Source: a bacterium
Lineage (GTDB): Bacteria > Patescibacteriota > Gracilibacteria > UBA4473
Reading direction: 5' to 3'
Assembly: GCA_018648585.1 (NCBI GenBank)
Contig: JABGQW010000025.1
Location: forward strand, 3,736-67,735
DNA length: 64,000 bases
Below, piece by piece: positions 15,101 to 57,596 of the stretch (positions within the stretch are counted from its first letter, which is position 1; every line of letters starts with the position of its first letter). A program made the position numbers and the translations under genes. Under the pieces are notes generated by a model, which saw nothing but the letters and a program-made list of their open reading frames with translations, was not told the DNA's origin and searched no databases.

Positions 15101-15924
15101 TACGTTTCGGCTTCAAATTTCATTCCCTCAAGTTTTTTTCCGGGAACAATCTCTGTAATTTCGAAATCTTTTCGCAGCTGCGTGTGCTCGTTGAAATATT
15201 TTTTTGTCACGACGCATTCACGCCCCGCGGCATTTTTTGCGCGCACGTACTCCGCCGTCGGATGCACCATCACCGGGCTGTCGGCACATTTTGTTTCTGC
15301 GCGCACGGTTCCGAGAATGAACGGCCCGCACCAAAATTCGTAAAAATCTTCCTCGTTGTCCTCCCACTCGACTTCGTCGTCCGCCAAAACCGACTGCGCG
15401 CCGACCGACCAGTTGATCATTCGGTGTCCGCGTGTGATCAGTCCGTCGTCGGCAAGTTTTTTGAAAATCCAATTCACAGAAAAATTCCGCTCGCGATCAA
15501 ACGTGTACGCCTCCCGCGACCAGTCAAGATGCGCGCCCATTTTTTTGATCTGGTGCACGATTCGGTCGTGTTTTTCTGTGGCAAATTTTCGACACTCGCC
15601 CAAAAATCCCTCGCGCGACATTTCCTCGCGAGATTTAATTTCCAAATATTTGAGCACAACATTTTCGGTCGCGATCGCTGCGTGGTCCGTCCCGGGAAGC
15701 CACAAAACTTCGTGTCCGGTCATTTTTTTGTACCGAATCAAAATATCCTCGACCGCCAGCATCGCGGCGTGCCCGAGATGAAGCTGCCCCGTCACGTTTG
15801 GCGGCGGGAGCGGAATTGTGTACGATTTTTTCGCGGAATTTTCGTCCGCGCGCATCACGCCCGCAGATTCCCAATTTTCGTAAATTTTATCCTCGGAACC
15901 GTTGTGATCGTAATTTTTTTCCAT
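12136..15924 (-). CDS. valS: valine--tRNA ligase carrying an internal ~375-aa double histidine-phosphatase insertion
   Basis: HIGH-type PPNVTGQLHLGHA, WWGHRIPVWY, DTLDTWFSSALWPFSTLGWP, KMSKS as KMSKTKGN, and a C-terminal coiled coil. The insert holds two RHGES...SHGG-type modules (see findings). Confidence 0.95.
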   Translation of the reverse strand: MEKNYDHNGSEDKIYENWESAGVMRADENSAKKSYTIPLPPPNVTGQLHLGHAAMLAVEDILIRYKKMTGHEVLWLPGTDHAAIATENVVLKYLEIKSREEMSREGFLGECRKFATEKHDRIVHQIKKMGAHLDWSREAYTFDRERNFSVNWIFKKLADDGLITRGHRMINWSVGAQSVLADDEVEWEDNEEDFYEFWCGPFILGTVRAETKCADSPVMVHPTAEYVRAKNAAGRECVVTKKYFNEHTQLRKDFEITEIVPGKKLEGMKFEAETYAGTRKFWVVADEVIDPEFGTGAMTISASHSSEDFALAQKYDLELIQKIDFKGKMTAIAGLCEGLSVAAARKKAGEIMVEKSLLFQKRPHANRVPKCYRSGTVVEPMLSPQWFISVNKEFVDKFSGKKTTLCKLTADAVRDGNIKIVPKRFEKTYFQWTDNLRDWCISRQIWWGHRIPVWYDEAGKIFLPEKKSVIFARHGESQANVENVIGGDFSLTESGRRTAEEIFEQVKDRKISKIICSNLKRGKETAELVAGLFANNTQIEVWPELDEFCSTELAQKSGANFRRVSPIQINFDELKDESLDQIRDRAQSVFSKLQNETGEVLVIGHKNITAALFHFSRSDDTEKFVRFRKNWEWRRGESRDFEFLQDPRGNEISFFRHGESEWNVSKKVQGQHSGIYLTEKGKSQARDAAKKLAYKNFEKIICSDLERAIETAEILRTELGISPKIEIWPELREWGLGAVEGKNLAEAFGASENFPYDAIARKIEAGELDSNAENLEQLEARAHAVFAKLKKEKNALVVSHGGFLGILQKIHRDGSIGKLQEFFKTWKKLENLQHFSLEISSLTQDEDTLDTWFSSALWPFSTLGWPDESATDFQRFYPNDVLETGHDILTFWVLRMVMFGRYATGKCPFHTVYLHGLVCDEHGQKMSKTKGNGIDPLEVISEVGADAVRLSLVIGATPGNPIPLGKSKVSGYRNFVNKLWNAGRFVQFQLSESENVIPSLTPKNLSEKWLLHRFSEVCANVSQKLKKYEISAAGDEIYHFVWDEFCNWFVETSKVSRNPAFLYGIFLEILKLAHPLVPFVTEKLWQDLAKDDEFLIEKSFPAPDFQDKKSVALFAQIQMIVTELRKVRAEKKLPPREKISIHISAGKSADEIAAQSDLIAVLGGCSTVKVAEKISQKPEHSVTVLSEGMEIFVEIPFDAAAEKTRLTTEISTLEKSIVALESRLKNKNYIEKAPASLVAETKSQLEKNANELQKLREQLSNL

Positions 15925-15981
15925 TGAAAATGTGGAGAAATCACGCCGAGTGTACCGATTTTTGCGGGTTTTTCAACGCAG

Positions 15982-16009
15982 AAAAAAAGCCGGAATTTCA
16001 CCGGCTTTT
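15982..16009 (-). terminator. intrinsic terminator hairpin (bidirectional A-run/T-run flanks)
   Basis: AAAAAGCCGG-aatttca-CCGGCTTTT immediately downstream of the 80-aa gene. Confidence 0.7.
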
Positions 16010-16015
16010 AAAAAG

Positions 16016-16258
16016 TTAATTTTCTTTTTGTTCCGCCGCCCCCCAGTACCACCGGGAGACTTCTTTTCCATCGTCGTCTTCTTCGACGATAAAAACTGGC
16101 GATCCGTGCCAGATGAATTTTAGCAACACTGCCAACAGCAGTGTTCCGAAAACTCCAACTAACCAATCCTGAAAAAATATTCTCAGGTAGCTTCCGGCCC
16201 AAATCAAAATTACTAAAATTGTCAAGCCCACTTTCGTGAGCTTTTCTTTTTTTTTCAT
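16016..16258 (-). CDS. small membrane protein (2 predicted TM)
   Basis: 80-aa ORF MKKKEKLTKVGLTILVILIWAG.. with a hydrophobic core and acidic tail. Preceded by the conserved leader and followed by a terminator. Confidence 0.6.
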   Translation of the reverse strand: MKKKEKLTKVGLTILVILIWAGSYLRIFFQDWLVGVFGTLLLAVLLKFIWHGSPVFIVEEDDDGKEVSRWYWGAAEQKEN

Positions 16259-16277
16259 ATTTTTAATTTTTTAATCG

Positions 16278-16346
16278 TGCAGAACAAAAAGAACATTTCA
16301 CCGGGGATTCCCGAGAAAAATAATTCTTCCGGTTCTCCACGCGGTT
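16278..16346 (-). promoter_or_regulatory. conserved ~70-nt 5' leader, copy A
   Basis: About 90% identical by eye to copies at 16761-16830 and 17141-17212. A promoter-like TTGACA-N17-CAAAAT lies on the minus strand (plus coordinates 16378-16383 and 16355-16360). Confidence 0.55.
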
Positions 16347-16390
16347 CTACGTCGATTTTGACAGATTTTTTAAAGTTTGTCAAAAAAGAA

Positions 16391-16416
16391 AAAAAGTCGG
16401 AATTTCACCGACTTTT
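16391..16416 (-). terminator. intrinsic terminator hairpin
   Basis: AAAAAGTCGG-aatttca-CCGACTTTT, a paralogous copy of the hairpin at 15982. Confidence 0.7.
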
Positions 16417-16439
16417 CAAAAATGACAATCTTTGTCATT

Positions 16440-16745
16440 TTACATCGTCTGTCGCACAAACCATTTCCTAGGAAAAACGTCTCGAGCGCCTGTCCAAAGA
16501 CAAAAACCAAAACGCCAGAAAATCCAAGGAAGAAAAATCAAGTCAAACACAAGAATCCAATGAAAAAACCACGGAATCGCTTCAAAAGTTTTCATCATTT
16601 GTGAAAAAATGTTTGACCAACCTGCATCGAACCAACTGGCTTCGAGAAACAGCACCGCCATTGTAAAAAGCCCCGCTCCCCACATGACAATCGCAGGCAA
16701 TTTTAAAAATAAAAAATGCCCCACTTTTTTAAATATCTTTTTCAT
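16440..16745 (-). CDS. small membrane protein (about 3 predicted TM)
   Basis: Start moved in-frame to the ATGAAAAAG shared with the two sister cassettes. Sequence begins MKKIFKKVGHFLFLKLPAIVMWGAGLF... Confidence 0.55.
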   Translation of the reverse strand: MKKIFKKVGHFLFLKLPAIVMWGAGLFTMAVLFLEASWFDAGWSNIFSQMMKTFEAIPWFFHWILVFDLIFLPWIFWRFGFCLWTGARDVFPRKWFVRQTM

Positions 16746-16760
16746 AGTTTTCATTTTTTG

Positions 16761-16830
16761 TGCGCAGAGCGAAAAGAACATTTCCCGGGGATCTCCGAGA
16801 AAAAAAATTCTTCCGGTTCTCCACACGGTT
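16761..16830 (-). promoter_or_regulatory. conserved ~70-nt 5' leader, copy B
   Basis: Same element as copy A. TTGACA at plus 16862-16867 and CAAAAC at 16839-16844, 17-nt spacer. Confidence 0.55.
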
Positions 16831-16872
16831 ATGAATCAGTTTTGTCAGGTTTTTAAAATTTTGTCAAAAAAG

Positions 16873-16900
16873 AAAAAAAGCCGGGATTTCACCGGCTTTT
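16873..16900 (-). terminator. intrinsic terminator hairpin
   Basis: AAAAAGCCGG-gatttca-CCGGCTTTT. Confidence 0.7.
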
Positions 16901-16930
16901 CAAAAATGGTTTTTCAACCATTCGCATTTT

Positions 16931-17128
16931 TCAGTTCCAGCGCAGAGAAAGTCTGACTACCAAAAATCCCAACGCTCCTTCCGTCAGAAATAAGGGCAAC
17001 ATTCCCAAGACTTCTGAAAAGTTTTTTGCGATGGAAAAATCAATGTAATTCGATCCCAACCACCACAACGACAACAACCCAATCACAATGATTTTGAGGA
17101 CAATCCCCAAAGAATCTCTCTTTTTCAT
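16931..17128 (-). CDS. small membrane protein (2 predicted TM)
   Basis: 65-aa ORF MKKRDSLGIVLKIIVIGLLSLWWLG..., with a leader upstream and a terminator downstream. Confidence 0.55.
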   Translation of the reverse strand: MKKRDSLGIVLKIIVIGLLSLWWLGSNYIDFSIAKNFSEVLGMLPLFLTEGALGFLVVRLSLRWN

Positions 17129-17140
17129 AATTTTAATTTA

Positions 17141-17212
17141 TGCGCGCAGAACAAAAAGAACATTTCACCGGGGATTCCCGAGAAAAAAATTCTTCCGGTT
17201 CTCCACACGGTT
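17141..17212 (-). promoter_or_regulatory. conserved ~70-nt 5' leader, copy C
   Basis: Same element. Promoter-like TTGACG (plus 17243-17248), N16, TAAAAA (17221-17226), placed right after the mscS stop. Confidence 0.55.
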
Positions 17213-17248
17213 GTGGTACCTTTTTAGCAAAAAGTAAAAAATCGTCAA

Positions 17249-18307
17249 TCAGTCTTTTTTGAGATACACCGTCTGCGTTGGAAACGCCATTTCAATTTTT
17301 TCTTTTTCAAACGCCGACAAAATCCCCAGATTGATTTCCTGCTGCGTTTCCATGTGATCGAATTTTTTTCCGGTGAGCACAAAATACACCACCACGAATC
17401 CCAGACTCGAATCATCAAACGTGTGAAAATGTGTACGACCAAATTCTGCCAACTCAACTTTTTCAACGACCGATTTTACAATTTCTGGAATATTTTTCAG
17501 TTTTTCAACCGGCGTGTCGTACGTCACTCCAAACTCAAAATCCACGCGACGACGTTTTAATTTTTTGAAATTTTGAACGCGGGATTCCGTCAGTTCTCGA
17601 TTCGAAATCACAAGTTCTTCTCCGCGGAGCGCAGAAATCCGCGTGGTTTTGAGCCCGATTTTTTTGACGGTTCCCTCGTGCGTCCCGACGACGATGTAGT
17701 CGCCAACTTCGAACGGTTTGTCGAAATAAATCGTAAAACTTGAAAATAAATCACCGAGAATATTTTGAGCAGCCAAAGCGATCGCGATACCTCCAATTCC
17801 GAGAGACGCCACGAGCGTCGAAACATCGAATCCGAGATTTGAAAAAACCAGCAACGCGCCAATCGCCCAAAGCAAAATCCGCACAATCATCTGAATTCCC
17901 TGGAGCGACGTTTTATTTTTTCCGAGGGCAGATGATCGCAACCAATAAAAAACAACAGCCTGTCCCAGCCGCAACGCTTCGTACGCCAGCACAACGAAAA
18001 AGACACCGTCGACAATTTTTTGGCTCGCGGGATCCACGTTCAACACAAGTTTTGTTGTGAGAAAAAACGCAAAAATCAGATAAAAAATCCCTGAAATCTG
18101 CGAGATTTTTTCAAAAATCGTGTCATCAAATTGCGTGTTTGTTCTTTCCGCCATTTTCCCAAATTTGCGCAGCAAAACTTTTCGAAAAAGCCTGACCGCA
18201 AGCAAAATAGCAAAAAACAACAACACCGCGATCACCAGCTCCGAGAGAGAATTTCCAAAAAAATTCATCTCAGGAATCCACGCCGTCAAGATTTCAAAAT
18301 TTTCCAT
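17249..18307 (-). CDS. mechanosensitive ion channel, MscS family
   Basis: N-terminal TM helices followed by the MscS beta-domain PFEVGDYIVVGTHEGTVKKIGLKTTRISALRGEELVISN. Confidence 0.88.
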   Translation of the reverse strand: MENFEILTAWIPEMNFFGNSLSELVIAVLLFFAILLAVRLFRKVLLRKFGKMAERTNTQFDDTIFEKISQISGIFYLIFAFFLTTKLVLNVDPASQKIVDGVFFVVLAYEALRLGQAVVFYWLRSSALGKNKTSLQGIQMIVRILLWAIGALLVFSNLGFDVSTLVASLGIGGIAIALAAQNILGDLFSSFTIYFDKPFEVGDYIVVGTHEGTVKKIGLKTTRISALRGEELVISNRELTESRVQNFKKLKRRRVDFEFGVTYDTPVEKLKNIPEIVKSVVEKVELAEFGRTHFHTFDDSSLGFVVVYFVLTGKKFDHMETQQEINLGILSAFEKEKIEMAFPTQTVYLKKD

Positions 18308-21267: not shown

Positions 21268-21310
21268 CGACCAGAAGTGTGTCAGAGATTTGAGATTTTT
21301 TCAATATTTT

Positions 21311-21338
21311 AAAAAACCGTACAACCGCACGGTTTTTT
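21311..21338 (-). terminator. intrinsic terminator
   Basis: AAAAAACCGT-acaaccgc-ACGGTTTTTT downstream of the 84-aa gene. Confidence 0.6.
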
Positions 21339-21355
21339 GTTTTTTCAAAATTTGT

Positions 21356-21610
21356 TCAATTCCGTCGGACCAAATAACGTTTTACTACGACAATAATCAC
21401 CGGAATCACCAAAAGTAAAACTGCCAATATTATCCAGCCCGTTCCATCGAGAACCTTGAAATAAATTCGAATCGAAATAATCACCGCAGAAACGGCGCAA
21501 ATCGCGAAACAACCCCTCCAGATGCTTTTAAGTGTTTGTTCTGGAATCATGGCATATAAAAAAGCCAAACATGTAGAAATCGCCGCTAAAACTATAGAAA
21601 ATATTTCCAT
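21356..21610 (-). CDS. small membrane protein (2-3 TM)
   Basis: 84-aa hydrophobic ORF followed by a terminator. Confidence 0.5.
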   Translation of the reverse strand: MEIFSIVLAAISTCLAFLYAMIPEQTLKSIWRGCFAICAVSAVIISIRIYFKVLDGTGWIILAVLLLVIPVIIVVVKRYLVRRN

Positions 21611-21736
21611 TTTTTTCCTCCTAGGATTTTTGTGAAAGAACAGATTCCTGACAGAGGAAATCCATTCTTTCGATTAAAAAACAAATTTACACACTCTGTC
21701 ACAGTTGTTTTTAAAATTTCTTGCAGGATCCGTCAA

Positions 21737-22042: not shown

Positions 22043-22139
22043 TTTATTTTTTTGAAAAAATTACACGCGAAGTGTACCGAGTTCTGAAAATTTTTCGAAC
22101 TCTTTTTCAAACTTTTTTCCAGCAATTCTCAATTCTCCC

Positions 22140-22410
22140 ATTTCACATTCCCAACTCGAGTAGAAATCCATTTTCAAAACTTTTAACTCGAAACTCTGAA
22201 CTCTCAACTTTCTGAAAAACCTCCGGCAGGAATGAATTTTAAAATACTTGATTGGCTCGCTCCACTCGCCAATCTTCGAACATTTTTTGTTTTTAAAAAA
22301 CTTTAAACTCTGAACTCTCAACTTTTAACTTTTTAAAACTTTCTCTCAATTCCCCCTGACAAGGAGGCGAGGGGGTTGTTTTTTTTGAAACGATAAACCC
22401 TAAACTTTTC
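22140..22410. repeat. partial or degenerate copy of the modular intergenic repeat family
   Basis: Contains CATTCCCAACTCGAG..AAATCCA, AACTCTGAACTCTCAAC heptamers, and CCCCCTGACAAGGAGGCGAGGGGGTTG followed by a T8 run. Confidence 0.7.
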
Positions 22411-26018: not shown

Positions 26019-26585
26019 TTAAAATTGCGTGTTGGTGCGCTGCGCGATTTCGCGAAACGATTTTTTTGCACGAGAAACCAGCGTCGCGATCGTGCCCATC
26101 GGTTTTTTCAAAATATCGGAAATCTCGGTGTACGACAAATCGTCGTAAAATTTCAGAACCAAAATTTCGCGATATTTTTTTGGAACCTGCGCCAAAATCT
26201 GTTGAATTTTTTTTCCTGAAAGTTTCACGTCCAAGTCCAGTACAAAATCTGTTTTTTCTGGCAACGAAACCGTTTCGTCAAATTCAACTTCGGTGTCGTG
26301 GCCGCGCGATCGAAACCATCGAAACCGGGAAATTGTCTCGTTGTGCGCGATGCGATAAATCCAGCTGCGGAACGCAACACGCCCGTCAAAATCGTTGAGA
26401 TTTTTCCAAACTTTGAGAAAAATATCCTGCAAAATTTCCTCGACCGTTTCTGGGCAAAAATTGGAAATTCGCCGAATGTACGCCGCAAGTCGACGATCGT
26501 ACCGATCCATCAGCGGCGCAAAAAAATCCACGTCCGCGCGTGCTTTTTCGACGAGTTGTTCGTCCGAAAAATTTTGAATTTTCAT
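26019..26585 (-). CDS. ECF-type RNA polymerase sigma-70 factor
   Basis: Region 2 (WIYRIAHNETISRFR) and region 4 HTH (DLSYTEISDILKKPMGTIATLVSRAKK). Start moved in-frame to MKIQNFSDEQL. Confidence 0.88.
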   Translation of the reverse strand: MKIQNFSDEQLVEKARADVDFFAPLMDRYDRRLAAYIRRISNFCPETVEEILQDIFLKVWKNLNDFDGRVAFRSWIYRIAHNETISRFRWFRSRGHDTEVEFDETVSLPEKTDFVLDLDVKLSGKKIQQILAQVPKKYREILVLKFYDDLSYTEISDILKKPMGTIATLVSRAKKSFREIAQRTNTQF

Positions 26586-26702
26586 GCCACACAGTCGTAA
26601 AAAATTTCGCCACCAAAAGCAAGTACGCACCGGAGAAAATTTTCTTTCAAAAAAACCCCGCTGTTCTTCGCGGGGTTTTTTGTTGGAAATGAATTTTTGA
26701 AA

Positions 26703-27314: not shown

Positions 27315-27410
27315 GAAAGTTAAAAAGTTGAAATTAAAGCGGAAGTGGCCAGCTTCACCCGATGATACGCGGCGACGAAATTTTTTCTTTCAAAATTTTT
27401 TGAAAAAATC

Positions 27411-42207: not shown

Positions 42208-42217
42208 ATTTTTTCAA

Positions 42218-42982
42218 ATGTGTTTTCAAAAAAAATCATTCCCGGAAAAGGATCCGGAGAAAAATTTTTGCGACACAAGATTTTGTTTGCAATCCTGGCT
42301 CCTCGACGCATTTTTCCCGGCGAAATGTCTGACGTGCGGCCGCGCGGGCGATTTTTTGTGTGAAACACATCGCCAGTTTCCACCGGCGCCCCAGAACGAA
42401 GCGCAATTTCAACATCTCGATGAAATTTTTGCAGCCACCGAGTACTACGATCCGGTGGTGAAAAAGTCGGTAGAATTTTTTAAATTTCGCGGATTTTCAG
42501 CGTTGGCAAAAATTTTTGCAGAAACAATTGTCGAGCGCGTTCCCGATAATTTTTTAGAAAATGCGATTCTCGTGCCGATTCCCCTGCACTGGACACGGAA
42601 ACTTTGGCGCGGATTTAATCAAGCCGACGTGCTCGCACGAGCGATTTTGGAAAACCGAACCCGGGATCTAGATCCCGGGTTCGAATTAAAATTTGATTTA
42701 AAACGCGTTCGTCGCACGCACCAGCAAGCACGACTGGGAAAATCTGCTCGCAAAAAAAATCTTGACGATGCGTTTTTCTGGTGCGGAGAAAATCTGGCAG
42801 GGAAAAAAATCGTACTGGTCGACGATGTCGTCGCCAGCGGATCAACACTGGATGCGGCTGCCGCAGTACTGAAAAAATCTGGTGCAAAAGCAGTTCACGC
42901 GGTGGTTTTTGCGCGCGGCGGGAAAACCAAAGAACCCGGGTTCGATCAATCAAACACCGATTCAAAATCTTCCAGCGCCTGA
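42218..42982 (+). CDS. comF: ComF family protein (phosphoribosyltransferase domain)
   Basis: N-terminal Cys pairs CLTCG..CETH, RGFNQADVLARAI, PRT motif KKIVLVDDVVASGSTL. The 3' end overlaps the convergent RAYT gene by 37 nt. Confidence 0.88.
   Translation: MCFQKKSFPEKDPEKNFCDTRFCLQSWLLDAFFPAKCLTCGRAGDFLCETHRQFPPAPQNEAQFQHLDEIFAATEYYDPVVKKSVEFFKFRGFSALAKIFAETIVERVPDNFLENAILVPIPLHWTRKLWRGFNQADVLARAILENRTRDLDPGFELKFDLKRVRRTHQQARLGKSARKKNLDDAFFWCGENLAGKKIVLVDDVVASGSTLDAAAAVLKKSGAKAVHAVVFARGGKTKEPGFDQSNTDSKSSSA
42657..42682. repeat. REP-type perfect 26-nt palindrome inside the comF ORF
   Basis: GAACCCGGGATCTAGATCCCGGGTTC, identical to the copies at 43487 and 43574. Confidence 0.9.
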
Positions 42983-48599: not shown

Positions 48600-49487
48600 T
48601 CTTCATTTCCAACTCGATTGAAAATCCATTTTCTTCCAAAAGAAACGCACCGCCCCCCTCATTCCCAACTCCTCCCGCTCCTCATTCCCAACTTGATTGG
48701 GAATCCAGAAAAATAGATCCCCGTTTTCACGGGAATGAGAATTTTTACCATTTTTAAAAAGAACGCAGATCTGCATTCTCTACTTTTTTAACTCTGAACT
48801 CTAAACTCTGAACTCTCAACTTTTTGAAACTTTCTCTCAATTCCCCCTGACAAGGGGGCGAGGGGGTTGTTTTTTTTCATTCCCAACTCGATTGGGAATC
48901 CAGAAAAATAGATCCCCGTTTTCACGGGAATGAGAATTTTTACTATTTTTAAAAAGAACGCAGATCTGCATTCTCTACTTTTTTAACTCTGAACTCTGAA
49001 CTCTGAACTCTCAACTTTTTGAAACTTTCTCTCAATTCCCCCTGACAAGGGGGCGAGGGGGTTGTTTTTTTTCATTCCCAACTCGATTGGGAATCCAGAA
49101 AAATAGATCCCCGTTTTCACGGGAATGAGAATTTTTACTATTTTTAAAAAGAACGCAGATCTGCATTCTCTACTTTTTTAACTCTGAACTCTGAACTCTG
49201 AACTCTCAAACTCTAAACTTTTTAAAACTTTCCCTGCATTCCCCCTGACAAGGGGGCGAGGGGGTTGTTTTTTTTCATTCCCAACTCGATTGGGAATCCA
49301 GAAAAATAGATCCCCGTTTTCACGGGAATGAGAATTTTTACTATTTTTAAAAAGAACGCAGATCTGCATTCTCTACTTTTTTAACTCTGAACTCTGAACT
49401 CTGAACTCTCAAACTCTAAACTTTTTAAAACTTTCCCTGCATTCCCCCTGACAAGGGGGCGAGGGGGTTGTTTTTTTCAACGCGAAA
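48600..49487. repeat. modular tandem repeat array: 4 full units plus a degenerate leading copy
   Basis: Unit starts at ~48683, 48878, 49073 and 49276 (periods 195, 195, 203, 202 nt). The units are near-identical. See findings. Confidence 0.92.
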
Positions 49488-55689: not shown

Positions 55690-55960
55690 AATTCGAAAAC
55701 TTTCAACTGAAAAAAAACTTTCCGATTCTCCGGAACGCAGATCTGCGTTCCCTGCTTTTTTAAAACTCGAAACTCTCAACTTTTCACTCCAGCTTCTCAT
55801 TCCCAACTCGATTGGGAATCCAAGAAAATAGATTCCCGTTTTCACGGGAATGAGAATTTTTATCATTTTTAAAAAAAACGCAGGTCTGAGTTCCCTCCTT
55901 TTTTAACTCTAAACTTTTAACTCTGAACTTTTCCCAACTCTAAACTCTCAACTTTCAACT
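55690..55960. repeat. copy of the modular repeat family (modules in a different order)
   Basis: Perfect 20-nt palindrome GGAACGCAGATCTGCGTTCC (55732-55751). Also CATTCCCAACTCGATTGGGAATCCA, CCCGTTTTCACGGGAATGAGAATTTTTA, and heptamer-like AACTCTA/AACTTTT runs. Confidence 0.85.
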
Positions 55961-55961
55961 T

Positions 55962-57596
55962 TTAACTTTTTTCTCCCGCGACGCGCTGCACCTCGTCGAA
56001 CGTGGTGATCCCGGACAAAACTTTGAGAATTCCATCCTCGCGCAACGTGAGAAAATCTGAATTTTCGCGTAAAAATTGTAAAATTTTAATTTCGGAATCG
56101 CCGTGCAAAATCATTTCGCGAATTTCGTCGGTGACAAAAAATGCTTCGCAGATCGCGATCTGATCGTGAAATCCCGTGTTCGAACATTTTTCGCAGCCGA
56201 CCGCGACAGGAATTTTTTCAGGAAATTTGAGGTCGGGAAAAATGCGTTGCAGGTTTTGAAGTTCGGCTGCCGCAGCTTTTTGGAGCACAGAAATCGGCTG
56301 CTCGCCCGCGCAGTGCGGACAAACTCGGCGCACGAGTTTTTGCGCAAAAACAGCGTTGACCGTCGGCGCGATGTTGTAATTTTCCATTCCCATATTTCGC
56401 AGGCGGGAAACCGCTCCGATTGCAGAATTTGTGTGCAGCGACGACAGCACCGTGTGTCCGGTCAGCGCCGCTTCGAAAGCAAGTCGCGCCGTGCCGATCG
56501 TCCGCACTTCTCCGACTAAAATTACGTCCGGATCGTGACGCAGCAACGATTTGAATCCTGTTTCGAAATTGTACGCGCGGTCTTCGTTGACCTGCGACTG
56601 CGAAACGCCCGGCAGGTGGTACTCGATCGGATCTTCGAGCGTGACGAGTTTTTGTTCCGGTAAATTGAGTTCGGCGAGCATCGAGTACAACGTCGTGGTT
56701 TTTCCCGATCCAGTCGGCCCAGTGACCAGCACGATTCCATTTTTTTGGTGCAACGATTTCAAAATTTTTTCTTCCGCGTGCGGCGCAAATCCCAGTTCGG
56801 AAAAAGTCCGAATTCCACGATTCGAATCGAGAACTCGCATCACGACCGATTCGAGCGTCGGCGTCGGCAGCGTCGAAACACGCAGATCGACGAGTCGGCC
56901 GTTGACGCGGATCGCGGCGTGCCCGTCCTGCGGCGCGTCGGAAATATTGGATTTCATCCCAGATTCGAATTTGATGCGCGAGATCAGCGATTCCGCGATT
57001 TCGGGAGAAAGTCGGAGCGCGTCGTGCAAAACTCCGTCAACCCGCAGCCGGAGCACCACGCCGTCGACGACTGGTTGAAAATGAATGTCGCTCGCGCCGA
57101 TCGCGACCGATTCCACTTCGATTTCCGCGAGCGCACTTTTTGCCGGGAGATTTGAAATTTTTTTCTCGAGTTCCGCAAAATTTTGCAGCGTGGATTCCAG
57201 TTTTGTTTCGTGTTCTTCAACTTGGTCGCGAACCGCGACAGAATGTTTTTTCAAAATCTGTACGTCGTAATTTTTCAGCGCACGATCAAATCCGTCGCGC
57301 GAACAAATGTACACTTCGAGTTCGTATTTTTTCTGGAGTTCGGCAAATAATTTTTTCGTTTCGGCGGCCGAGGGTTCGACGATCGCCACGCGCAATTTTT
57401 TTCCAATTTTTTCGAACGGAAACAGTTCTGCTTTTTCTGATTCTTCTGCAGAAATAATTTTCAAAATATCCAAATTGATCGGAAATTCCGCAACATCGAC
57501 GTACTCAAATCCAAGTTTGGCCGCGCGTTCCCGCGTGGCGCGTTCTTGAAAATCACGATTGATTTTCAAAATTGAACCCGAAGAAGAATTTGCCAT
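55962..57596 (-). CDS. pilB: type IV pilus assembly ATPase (PilB/GspE family)
   Basis: GSPII_E N-terminal domain, Walker A GPTGSGKTTT, tetracysteine CPHC...CEKC. Start moved in-frame to MANSSSGS. Confidence 0.92.
   Translation of the reverse strand: MANSSSGSILKINRDFQERATRERAAKLGFEYVDVAEFPINLDILKIISAEESEKAELFPFEKIGKKLRVAIVEPSAAETKKLFAELQKKYELEVYICSRDGFDRALKNYDVQILKKHSVAVRDQVEEHETKLESTLQNFAELEKKISNLPAKSALAEIEVESVAIGASDIHFQPVVDGVVLRLRVDGVLHDALRLSPEIAESLISRIKFESGMKSNISDAPQDGHAAIRVNGRLVDLRVSTLPTPTLESVVMRVLDSNRGIRTFSELGFAPHAEEKILKSLHQKNGIVLVTGPTGSGKTTTLYSMLAELNLPEQKLVTLEDPIEYHLPGVSQSQVNEDRAYNFETGFKSLLRHDPDVILVGEVRTIGTARLAFEAALTGHTVLSSLHTNSAIGAVSRLRNMGMENYNIAPTVNAVFAQKLVRRVCPHCAGEQPISVLQKAAAAELQNLQRIFPDLKFPEKIPVAVGCEKCSNTGFHDQIAICEAFFVTDEIREMILHGDSEIKILQFLRENSDFLTLREDGILKVLSGITTFDEVQRVAGEKS

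Follow-up and report, generated by a model that had tools for sequence, protein, structure and literature searches.

A candidate structured leader RNA ahead of three dissimilar small membrane protein genes between mscS and valS of a Gracilibacteria genome

How can a non-coding leader stay nearly the same in neighbouring genes whose proteins show little resemblance to one another? The question is raised by the gap between the mechanosensitive channel gene mscS and the aminoacyl-tRNA synthetase gene valS in a 64,000-nucleotide stretch of contig JABGQW010000025.1 from a Gracilibacteria genome (hereafter the window, meaning the whole stretch that was analysed). On the minus strand of this gap, from 17248 to 15982, three units named A, B and C follow one another, each consisting of a promoter-like site, a leader, an open reading frame (ORF) and a terminator, in the same order and with the same spacing in three of three cases. 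An initial annotation had described these tandem units with their promoter-like sites, ORFs of 65, 101 and 80 amino acids (aa) and terminators, and every element was recovered in place (Table 1). The leader lies between promoter-like site and ORF, is under selection, folds best as the sense RNA, and is accompanied by ORFs with two transmembrane (TM) segments whenever it is present. We give an even chance to the reading that it is a lineage-specific, selected RNA hairpin acting in cis from the 5′ untranslated region (5′-UTR), within an expression module that was duplicated and partly homogenised at an intergenic spot of fast gene turnover.

The conserved module spans about 185 nucleotides (nt), from about 10-15 nt 5′ of one terminator to just beyond the next start codon, and its edges are sharp. 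For unit A the −35 box immediately adjoins the TGA stop codon of mscS, and in all window leaders, about 73 nt in length, the sequence AACCG begins exactly 8 nt past the −10 hexamer. The leader 18-mer GTGGAGAACCGGAAGAAT was found exactly three times in 64 kb, as against 0.04 occurrences expected. Leader identity had been put at about 90% by eye; the computed values ranged from 77% (B and C) through 82% (A and B) to 95% (A and C). The terminators are also near-identical, with the form GCCGG/GTCGG-TGAAATY-CCGGC/CCGAC followed by T7, and the stem of copy B carries a compensatory change from C-G to U-A. Alignment z scores among the units were 16-17 for promoter plus leader and 7-10 for the terminators, and 2.4-3.9 for the ORFs. 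The ORF starts read ATGAAAAA; here the earlier description was corrected for ORF C, which starts with ATGAAAAAA and not with ATGAAAAAG.

For the proteins, BLASTP among A, B and C gave no significant pair (E of at least 0.39 for all pairs). Only with composition correction off did A and C align colinearly, with 29% identity over 58 aa, at a marginal E of 0.019 in an 8-sequence database. No significant match was obtained for any of the three in Pfam, PHROGs or NCBIfam; A and C matched only themselves among 5.8 billion clusters, and a full HMMER scan of 1.84 billion representatives returned no protein but B itself. Each of the three has a basic N-terminus and exactly two TM-like segments, and we take them to be genuine small membrane proteins that either evolve very fast or are young. 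Their original label, 'unrelated', is right as far as significant similarity goes but is too strong, because the leader-linked ORFs have a common two-TM architecture.

The locus trxB-mscS-valS was then compared in thirteen lineages, with loci labelled L019 to L033. The gene order was kept in all thirteen, and the closest MscS proteins, 55-69% identical, carried the names Gracilibacteria, Peribacteraceae or Patescibacteria. The mscS-valS gap was hypervariable across the lineages. It measured 65-115 nt and held no cassette at L020, L021, L022, L028/L029, L030, L032 and L033; it was filled by an unrelated, leaderless 150-aa ORF at L026/L027, by a remnant with the 3′ half of the leader only and a 47-aa ORF at L023, by one full cassette at L019, and by one full cassette plus extra mini-genes at L024/L025, next to the three cassettes of the window. 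Tallied by lineage, there was no cassette in eight, the leaderless ORF in one and the remnant in one, the others having one, one with extras, or three cassettes. Relatives do carry the leader at the orthologous locus, as the regulatory proposal of the initial annotation required: it is present in two lineages (L019 and L024), a remnant in L023, and absent in nine.

At L019 and L024, whose MscS proteins are 64-67% identical to that of the window, the −35 box adjoins the mscS stop as it does in the window and is followed by a clear leader homologue (79 and 41 bits with the covariance model). The promoter-like site was located 8 nt upstream of the leader in four of the five copies. The leader-linked ORFs of these two loci, of 99 or 71 aa, showed no detectable similarity to A, B, C or each other, and all five leader-linked ORFs of the window, L019 and L024 have the two-TM build. 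Leader states and length pointed to ORF B and the L019 ORF as orthologues, but this was set aside because the protein similarity was insignificant (E 0.4-0.8). Identity of the leader between lineages was 64-74%, as compared with 31-36% at the four-fold degenerate sites of mscS, which are saturated. The persistence of the leader despite this saturation indicates that it is under purifying selection and predates the window species. The pattern noted at the outset, conserved leader and terminator as against dissimilar proteins, thus holds and is strengthened by the relatives, in which the ORFs are again mutually unrecognisable. The window belongs to a marine metagenome-assembled genome (for example GCA_018670455.1) that was recovered identically from many samples. 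Strain microdiversity gave no information, since six assemblies were identical across 1.4 kb.

Within the genome, leader B has states in common with L019 and L024 (UUUUCG, GCAC), and A and C have derived states in common; leader B looks like the more ancestral copy. Promoter C resembles promoter B and not A, and no nucleotide alignment could be made between ORFs A and C. As a recent duplication of the whole unit would leave the ORFs about 95% identical, the segment from leader to start must have been copied or homogenised independently of the coding sequence. The near-identity of leaders A and C, set beside differing promoters and unalignable ORFs, indicates gene conversion or leader-only duplication.

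This mosaic, with leader A like C and promoter B like C, would also fit an account in which the hairpin is incidental and the module is a residue of old tandem duplications of one small gene, homogenised by conversion. The hairpin could then, for example, once have been a terminator flanked by A and U tracts, and promoter and terminator would be kept by ordinary selection. The covariance model does cross-match an ordinary terminator-like hairpin at 42216-42282, the common two-TM build is as in ancient paralogues, and A and C align colinearly. Conversion, however, cannot give the leader identity observed between lineages with saturated neutral sites, nor can it explain why L019 and L024 keep the fold although their arm sequences differ in part. 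We regard this account as unlikely.

The fold itself was predicted with RNAfold. The minimum free energy structure of each window leader is one long imperfect hairpin composed of P1 (GUGUG/CGCGC), P2 (AGAAC/GUUCU), P3 (GGAAGAAU/GUUCUUUU), a U4/GAAA step and P4 (CGGG/CCCG). Of the pairings first proposed by eye, AGAAC/GUUCU and the inner CGGG/CCCG are part of this structure; CCGG/CCGG is absent, GGAAGAAU pairing with GUUCUUUU instead. The free energies of leaders A, B and C were −31.8, −26.6 and −30.4 kcal/mol, with z of −4.4, −2.9 and −4.7 against dinucleotide shuffles, and the same hairpin was obtained for the L019 leader (z −2.8) and the L024 leader (z −1.7). The sense strand folded at −23.6 to −31.8 kcal/mol, as against −15.2 to −20.5 for the antisense strand, a gap of 6-16 kcal/mol, with leader A reaching just −15.4 kcal/mol in antisense. 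The sense RNA is more stable than its reverse complement because it includes 2-6 G-U pairs. This strand preference points to an RNA made on the ORF strand and argues against a palindrome in DNA, an antisense RNA or a recombination site formed by single-stranded DNA.

A function at the DNA level had been suggested in the initial annotation in the form of cassette capture through leader and terminator sites. In such a system the hairpin or terminator would be a recombination site, or the 185-nt modules would be homology arms for exchange of ORFs. Entirely different gap contents even at 90-93% MscS identity (L019/L032 and L023/L026) would be expected from it, as would the sharp boundaries between module and ORF and the sameness of leaders A and C in the absence of ORF similarity. 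Chromosomal integrons and clusters of attC sites lacking integron-integrases (CALINs) have homogeneous attC repeats, such as the VCRs of Vibrio, and the present locus is like these arrays in that a conserved imperfect palindrome alternates with small, mostly orphan ORFs and cassette number varies at one locus. In contrast to them, the repeat is situated between promoter and start codon, upstream and not downstream of the ORFs, R/L boxes are lacking, and the sense RNA is favoured. The arms are without conserved boxes of the RYYYAAC/GTTRRRY type, no AAC/GTT core is kept, and the arm sequences differ by lineage. No integrase or recombinase was detected among ten window ORFs tested, the one in L021 is not conserved, and no Phage_integrase match was obtained among the neighbours plus ten further window ORFs. 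Each cassette has its own promoter and terminator, and its fold is dependent on G-U pairs and specific to the RNA strand. Phage, plasmid and viral collections gave no match, and an origin from phage or plasmid was likewise set aside, there being no blastn match. Strand asymmetry and the lack of conserved boxes led to rejection of the leader as an attC site or an operator; the capture proposal is weak, and we consider a DNA-level cassette system very unlikely.

Conservation of the structure was tested with five leaders from three independent lineages, in an alignment fitted to the model. In this alignment 88.5% of the cells pair, as compared with 48-64% in slid registers, and three pairs have double changes. 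The outer arms pair despite differences in sequence, being AGAAC/GUUCU in the window, GUUcGAG/CUCAAC in L019 and GUGAU/AUCAC in L024. Taken across the three lineages, this conservation of structure is suggestive, not proof.

The apical loop differs among copies and lineages (AAUC, AGAUC, UACU, GACG), and conserved unpaired bases are few. In appearance the leader is a long, plain hairpin whose apical loop varies, and not an aptamer. This bears on the possibility of a ligand-responsive riboswitch, or a thermosensor, controlling the small membrane proteins, for which the predicted 5′-UTR position speaks. The inner hairpin with its U-tract resembles an expression platform; a terminator scan flagged this GC hairpin and U-tract in copy B, and A, C and L019 are similar by eye. 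In all lineages, fragments of nascent length have a competing fold that joins the 5′ AACCGNGUGG region to the CCCCGG strand and the purine arm to UUUCUCGG. Mutually exclusive folds, with the purine-rich arm or the CCCGG strand competing for UUUCUCGG, are possible in all three lineages, and such dual pairing constraints could explain the tight sequence constraint on the leader. This co-transcriptional, 5′-proximal alternative fold was nevertheless set aside, being insignificant against shuffles. The leader is a single hairpin without a multi-helix junction, and the terminator-like inner hairpin is present in some copies only. At the gathering threshold, Rfam 15 detected two tRNAs and nothing else in the window; in 15900-17300 at E ≤ 10, all matches were far under the gathering score and fell on terminators or low-complexity sequence. 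The region of the start codon is A/U-rich, has no Shine-Dalgarno sequence and lies outside the hairpin, unlike that of a classical thermometer. A riboswitch or thermosensor is thus highly improbable. A leader peptide or mini-upstream ORF (MFFLFC...) was also rejected, since frame, stop and AUG are not conserved. The sequence AUG UUC UUU... occurs in all window copies and in L019, but in A and C it overlaps ATGA, in B it is in frame, and in L019 it continues for 26 nt into the ORF; L024 has no such AUG.

A further proposal of the initial annotation was that the units are toxin-antitoxin-like loci of type I, in which the proteins would be membrane toxins and their mRNA would be restrained by the structured leader and a small antisense or trans RNA. 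The units share with the tandem type I loci ldr/rdl, ibs/sib and aapA/isoA (PMC5416894, PMC6733600) small hydrophobic ORFs with their own promoter and terminator, a place between core genes, and tandem multiplication, which is typical of such loci. The restriction of the orphan ORFs to one lineage also fits. Their long structured 5′-UTR and possible co-transcriptional alternative fold recall the metastable hok and aapA1 mRNAs (PMC6733600, PMC5416894). In addition, 19 nt at the 3′ end of ORF C (16018-16036) were 89% complementary to the leader's 3′ arm, at 16279-16297 in leader C and 17146-17164 in leader A, with a duplex z of −3.3 in unit C only. This 5′-3′ complementarity is missing in units A and B, and a long-range pairing of the hok/aapA type was set aside on that account. 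Opposite the shared module, no conserved pair of promoter and terminator was detected; the sites on the plus strand are copy-specific. Proteins of 65-101 aa with two TM segments are larger than typical toxins (less than 60 aa, one TM), the start-codon region stays outside the hairpin, and toxins of known tandem loci are recognisable paralogues, which A, B and C are not. On this evidence the toxin-antitoxin proposal is not supported, and we hold it to be unlikely.

These observations lead back to the cis-acting hairpin, which among the explanations offered at first is the best supported, by its position, its sense-strand preference and its presence in three lineages, although without any match to a riboswitch or Rfam family. 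The three units would be independently transcribed mini-genes for small two-TM membrane proteins, and the module of about 185 nt would begin with the terminator that ends the unit before it, followed by a sigma-70-like promoter and a 5′-UTR of about 73 nt. Transcription is predicted to start at or just 5′ of AACCG. The transcript would form a long imperfect, G-U-containing hairpin of 25-27 bp about 4-5 nt from its 5′ end, leaving the start region free. Selection would hold the leader sequence while the ORFs behind it diverge or are replaced, the module having been duplicated in tandem and partly homogenised within the genome. We infer that the hairpin could set the fate of the mRNA through protection of the 5′ end, cleavage by a double-strand-specific RNase, or premature termination at the inner GC hairpin and U-tract, and that the three genes may be co-regulated by one trans-acting factor or physical signal. 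Older than the proteins and also better conserved, the leader is probably a new RNA control element of narrow distribution, belonging by kind to the structured cis-regulatory leaders and lying outside every Rfam family.

Several points weigh against this interpretation. The start site, and with it the existence of a 5′-UTR, are predictions. Of 500 shuffles, 19 attained the covariation score of 0.189, few of the changes are truly compensatory, and the independent lineages number only three; in L019 the homologous register of P2/P3 is partly broken, shifted pairs being formed instead. The inner hairpin with its U-tract is terminator-like in the window copies and L019 and not in L024, where the U-run is 8 nt away from the stem. 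The alternative 5′-proximal fold, although found in all lineages, is of insignificant stability (z −0.4 to −2.3 against shuffles). The hairpin does not sequester the start codon, and therefore no simple translational mechanism is indicated. Finally, an element with so very narrow a distribution may be a minor one.

The narrow distribution is concluded because exact-pattern scans of three large collections gave no further copies. Exact gapped leader patterns in genome, metagenome and viral contig collections gave chance matches only, with nothing similar outside the specified bases, and since these scans missed even the source contigs, absence elsewhere is weak evidence. In a test for dispersed repeats of the CREE, ERIC or RPE type, three copies were found in the 64 kb of the window, all at mscS-valS, and one at each relative locus. 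A unit at 21310-21736 on the minus strand was considered as a fourth copy and rejected: the build is shared, but the leader shows no significant similarity and the covariance model has no match there. In this unit the stop of a 101-aa ORF adjoins TTGACG-N17-TAAAAA, followed by a 15-bp hairpin (GAAAGAAUGGAUUUC/GAAUCUGUUCUUUC), AGGAGG, an 84-aa ORF with three TM segments (21610-21356) and a terminator. Relatives also vary at the spot upstream of comM.

Among known leaders are the 5′-terminal stabiliser stem-loops of the ompA, ermC and aprE type and the RNase III-processed leader hairpins of the rnc, pnp and lambda N type. The present leader resembles them as a stable, cis-linked, imperfect stem-loop of about 25-27 bp that lies a few nt from the predicted 5′ end and keeps the ribosome-loading region free. 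It differs from the ompA, ermC and rnc types in having no homology to any described leader, in standing before several dissimilar tandem ORFs, and in the strong conservation of its sequence and not of the fold alone. That one selected leader serves several mutually unrecognisable orphan ORFs is its unusual feature. In the vlp and vsp families of Mycoplasma, conservation reaches into the signal peptide and variation arises by promoter slippage or site-specific inversion. The mscS-valS units are like them in being tandem genes of a reduced genome with a highly conserved 5′ non-coding region and divergent coding bodies, and unlike them in showing zero variation in six assemblies, one direction of all genes and no lipoprotein signal.

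The locus itself appears to be a site of continual replacement. MscS is 93% identical between L026 and L023, and their gap genes (5064-5516 in L026, 5128-5271 in L023) are entirely different, a 150-aa TM-anchored protein in the former and the 47-aa remnant in the latter, which shows that genes in the mscS-valS gap turn over very fast. On the MscS tree the cassette has a scattered occurrence, being absent even in L032, whose MscS is 90% identical to that of L019. Its history would be one of either repeated loss or site-specific regain, and the decaying copy of L023 supports loss. At L024 (4440-4625, the same in L025), the leader cassette is followed by a second, tiny unit, in which a terminator T-run and a TTGACC promoter-like site precede a 20-codon hydrophobic ORF (MFRNLVVFVLLVVLALPPVG) with its own terminator, CCGGCGAAAGCCGG-T7; a 104-aa soluble ORF overlapping the valS promoter comes next.

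Turnover of this kind is described for the minimal mobile element of Neisseria, a variable set of genes between conserved genes that is exchanged by homologous recombination (PMC2649163, PMC1538595), and the mscS-valS spot resembles it. The Neisseria CREE is an inverted-repeat element which supplies promoters and whose transcript hairpins are sensitive to RNase III (PMC2649163, PMC1538595); unlike CREE, the present element is not dispersed, has one orientation relative to the ORF and is without a signature of terminal repeats or target duplication. The promoter-leader-terminator module may even be a portable expression cassette that drives gene turnover at this spot, an extension that we rate as rather improbable. 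New or foreign short ORFs, mostly T-rich and hence hydrophobic, would be placed behind the selected leader, by homology-driven exchange between modules or their gene conversion, in a bacterium of the Candidate Phyla Radiation (CPR) that is naturally transformable, or else by de novo emergence. The locus would then be a nursery where small membrane proteins arise, or a 'poor man's integron' that has no recombinase.

Table 1. Positions and properties of the elements in and around the mscS-valS gap of the window
Feature	Positions	Strand	Remarks
mscS, 352 aa	17249..18307	-	Upstream core gene; Pfam MS_channel_1st/2nd/3rd
Unit A promoter-like site, TTGACG-N16-TAAAAA	17221..17248	-	−10 hexamer 8 nt 5′ of AACCG
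Leader A, 73 nt, hairpin with 27 pairs (6 G-U), predicted 5′-UTR	17140..17212	-	RNAfold; covariance model 96 bits
ORF A, 65 aa, two TM-like segments, orphan	16931..17128	-	Codon-usage score 0.10, coding range
Terminator A, GAAAAGCCGG-TGAAATC-CCGGCTTTTT then T-run	16868..16901	-	
Unit B promoter-like site, TTGACA-N17-CAAAAC	16839..16867	-	
Leader B	16758..16830	-	RNAfold; covariance model 87 bits; alignment
ORF B, 101 aa, two TM-like segments, orphan	16440..16745	-	Codon-usage score −0.02, borderline; extended to 128 aa through leader in some annotations
Terminator B, stem GTCGG...CCGAC	16384..16417	-	Stem change compensatory
Unit C promoter-like site, TTGACA-N17-CAAAAT	16355..16383	-	
Leader C, 95% identical to leader A	16273..16346	-	RNAfold; covariance model 89 bits
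ORF C, 80 aa, two TM-like segments, acidic C-terminus, orphan	16016..16258	-	Codon-usage score 0.20
Terminator C, GCCGG-TGAAATT-CCGGC-T7	15982..16005	-	
valS promoter-like site, TTGAAA-N16-TACACT	15949..15976	-	In all relatives; downstream edge of variable spot
valS, 1262 aa	12136..15924	-	Downstream core gene

Some further features of the window were recorded. In ValS, Pfam His_Phos_1 stretches (PGAM-like histidine phosphatase) are located between the halves of the class-I catalytic domain; two such stretches are present in the window protein, and the same insert is found in relatives of 1065-1287 aa. A phosphatase domain within an aminoacyl-tRNA synthetase is unusual. The valS promoter-like sequence TTGAAA-N16/17-TACACT, followed by a GTGATTT motif in the 5′-UTR, is kept in every relative examined (L019-L033), and the same CGGTACACT −10 element also occurs 5′ of the genes at 22071 and 40179. 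At 48682-49477, a 195-bp unit is repeated in four tandem copies with 97% identity, containing runs of the heptad AACTCTG and a CCCCCTCGCCCCCTTGTCAGGGGG hairpin, each unit with an ORF of about 57-63 aa (MQICVLFKN...); solo copies lie near 22349 and 50072 and related runs at 55901-55970, the dispersed copies being partial. A motif of the extracytoplasmic function (ECF) sigma type, TGAAAG-N16/17-CGTA, occurs exactly twice in the window, as against 0.12 expected, at 26624-26649 and 27366-27392 on the minus strand, just upstream of an ECF sigma-factor gene (26019-26585) and of the preceding 201-aa gene, which suggests that this operon may be autoregulated. Control of the three units by an ECF-sigma promoter was discarded, the motif being limited to the region upstream of the sigma operon.

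The very narrow distribution of the leader and the lack of a functional handle limit its immediate importance. To our knowledge, almost nothing is known on post-transcriptional control in Gracilibacteria and Peregrinibacteria, and should the leader prove to be a true regulatory RNA, this branch of the CPR would gain a cis-element not described before. The leader would then define a small co-regulated set of orphan two-TM proteins beside a mechanosensitive channel gene. A selected non-coding leader set against rapidly replaced coding sequence would also offer a concrete locus for the turnover, and possibly the birth, of small membrane proteins in reduced genomes.

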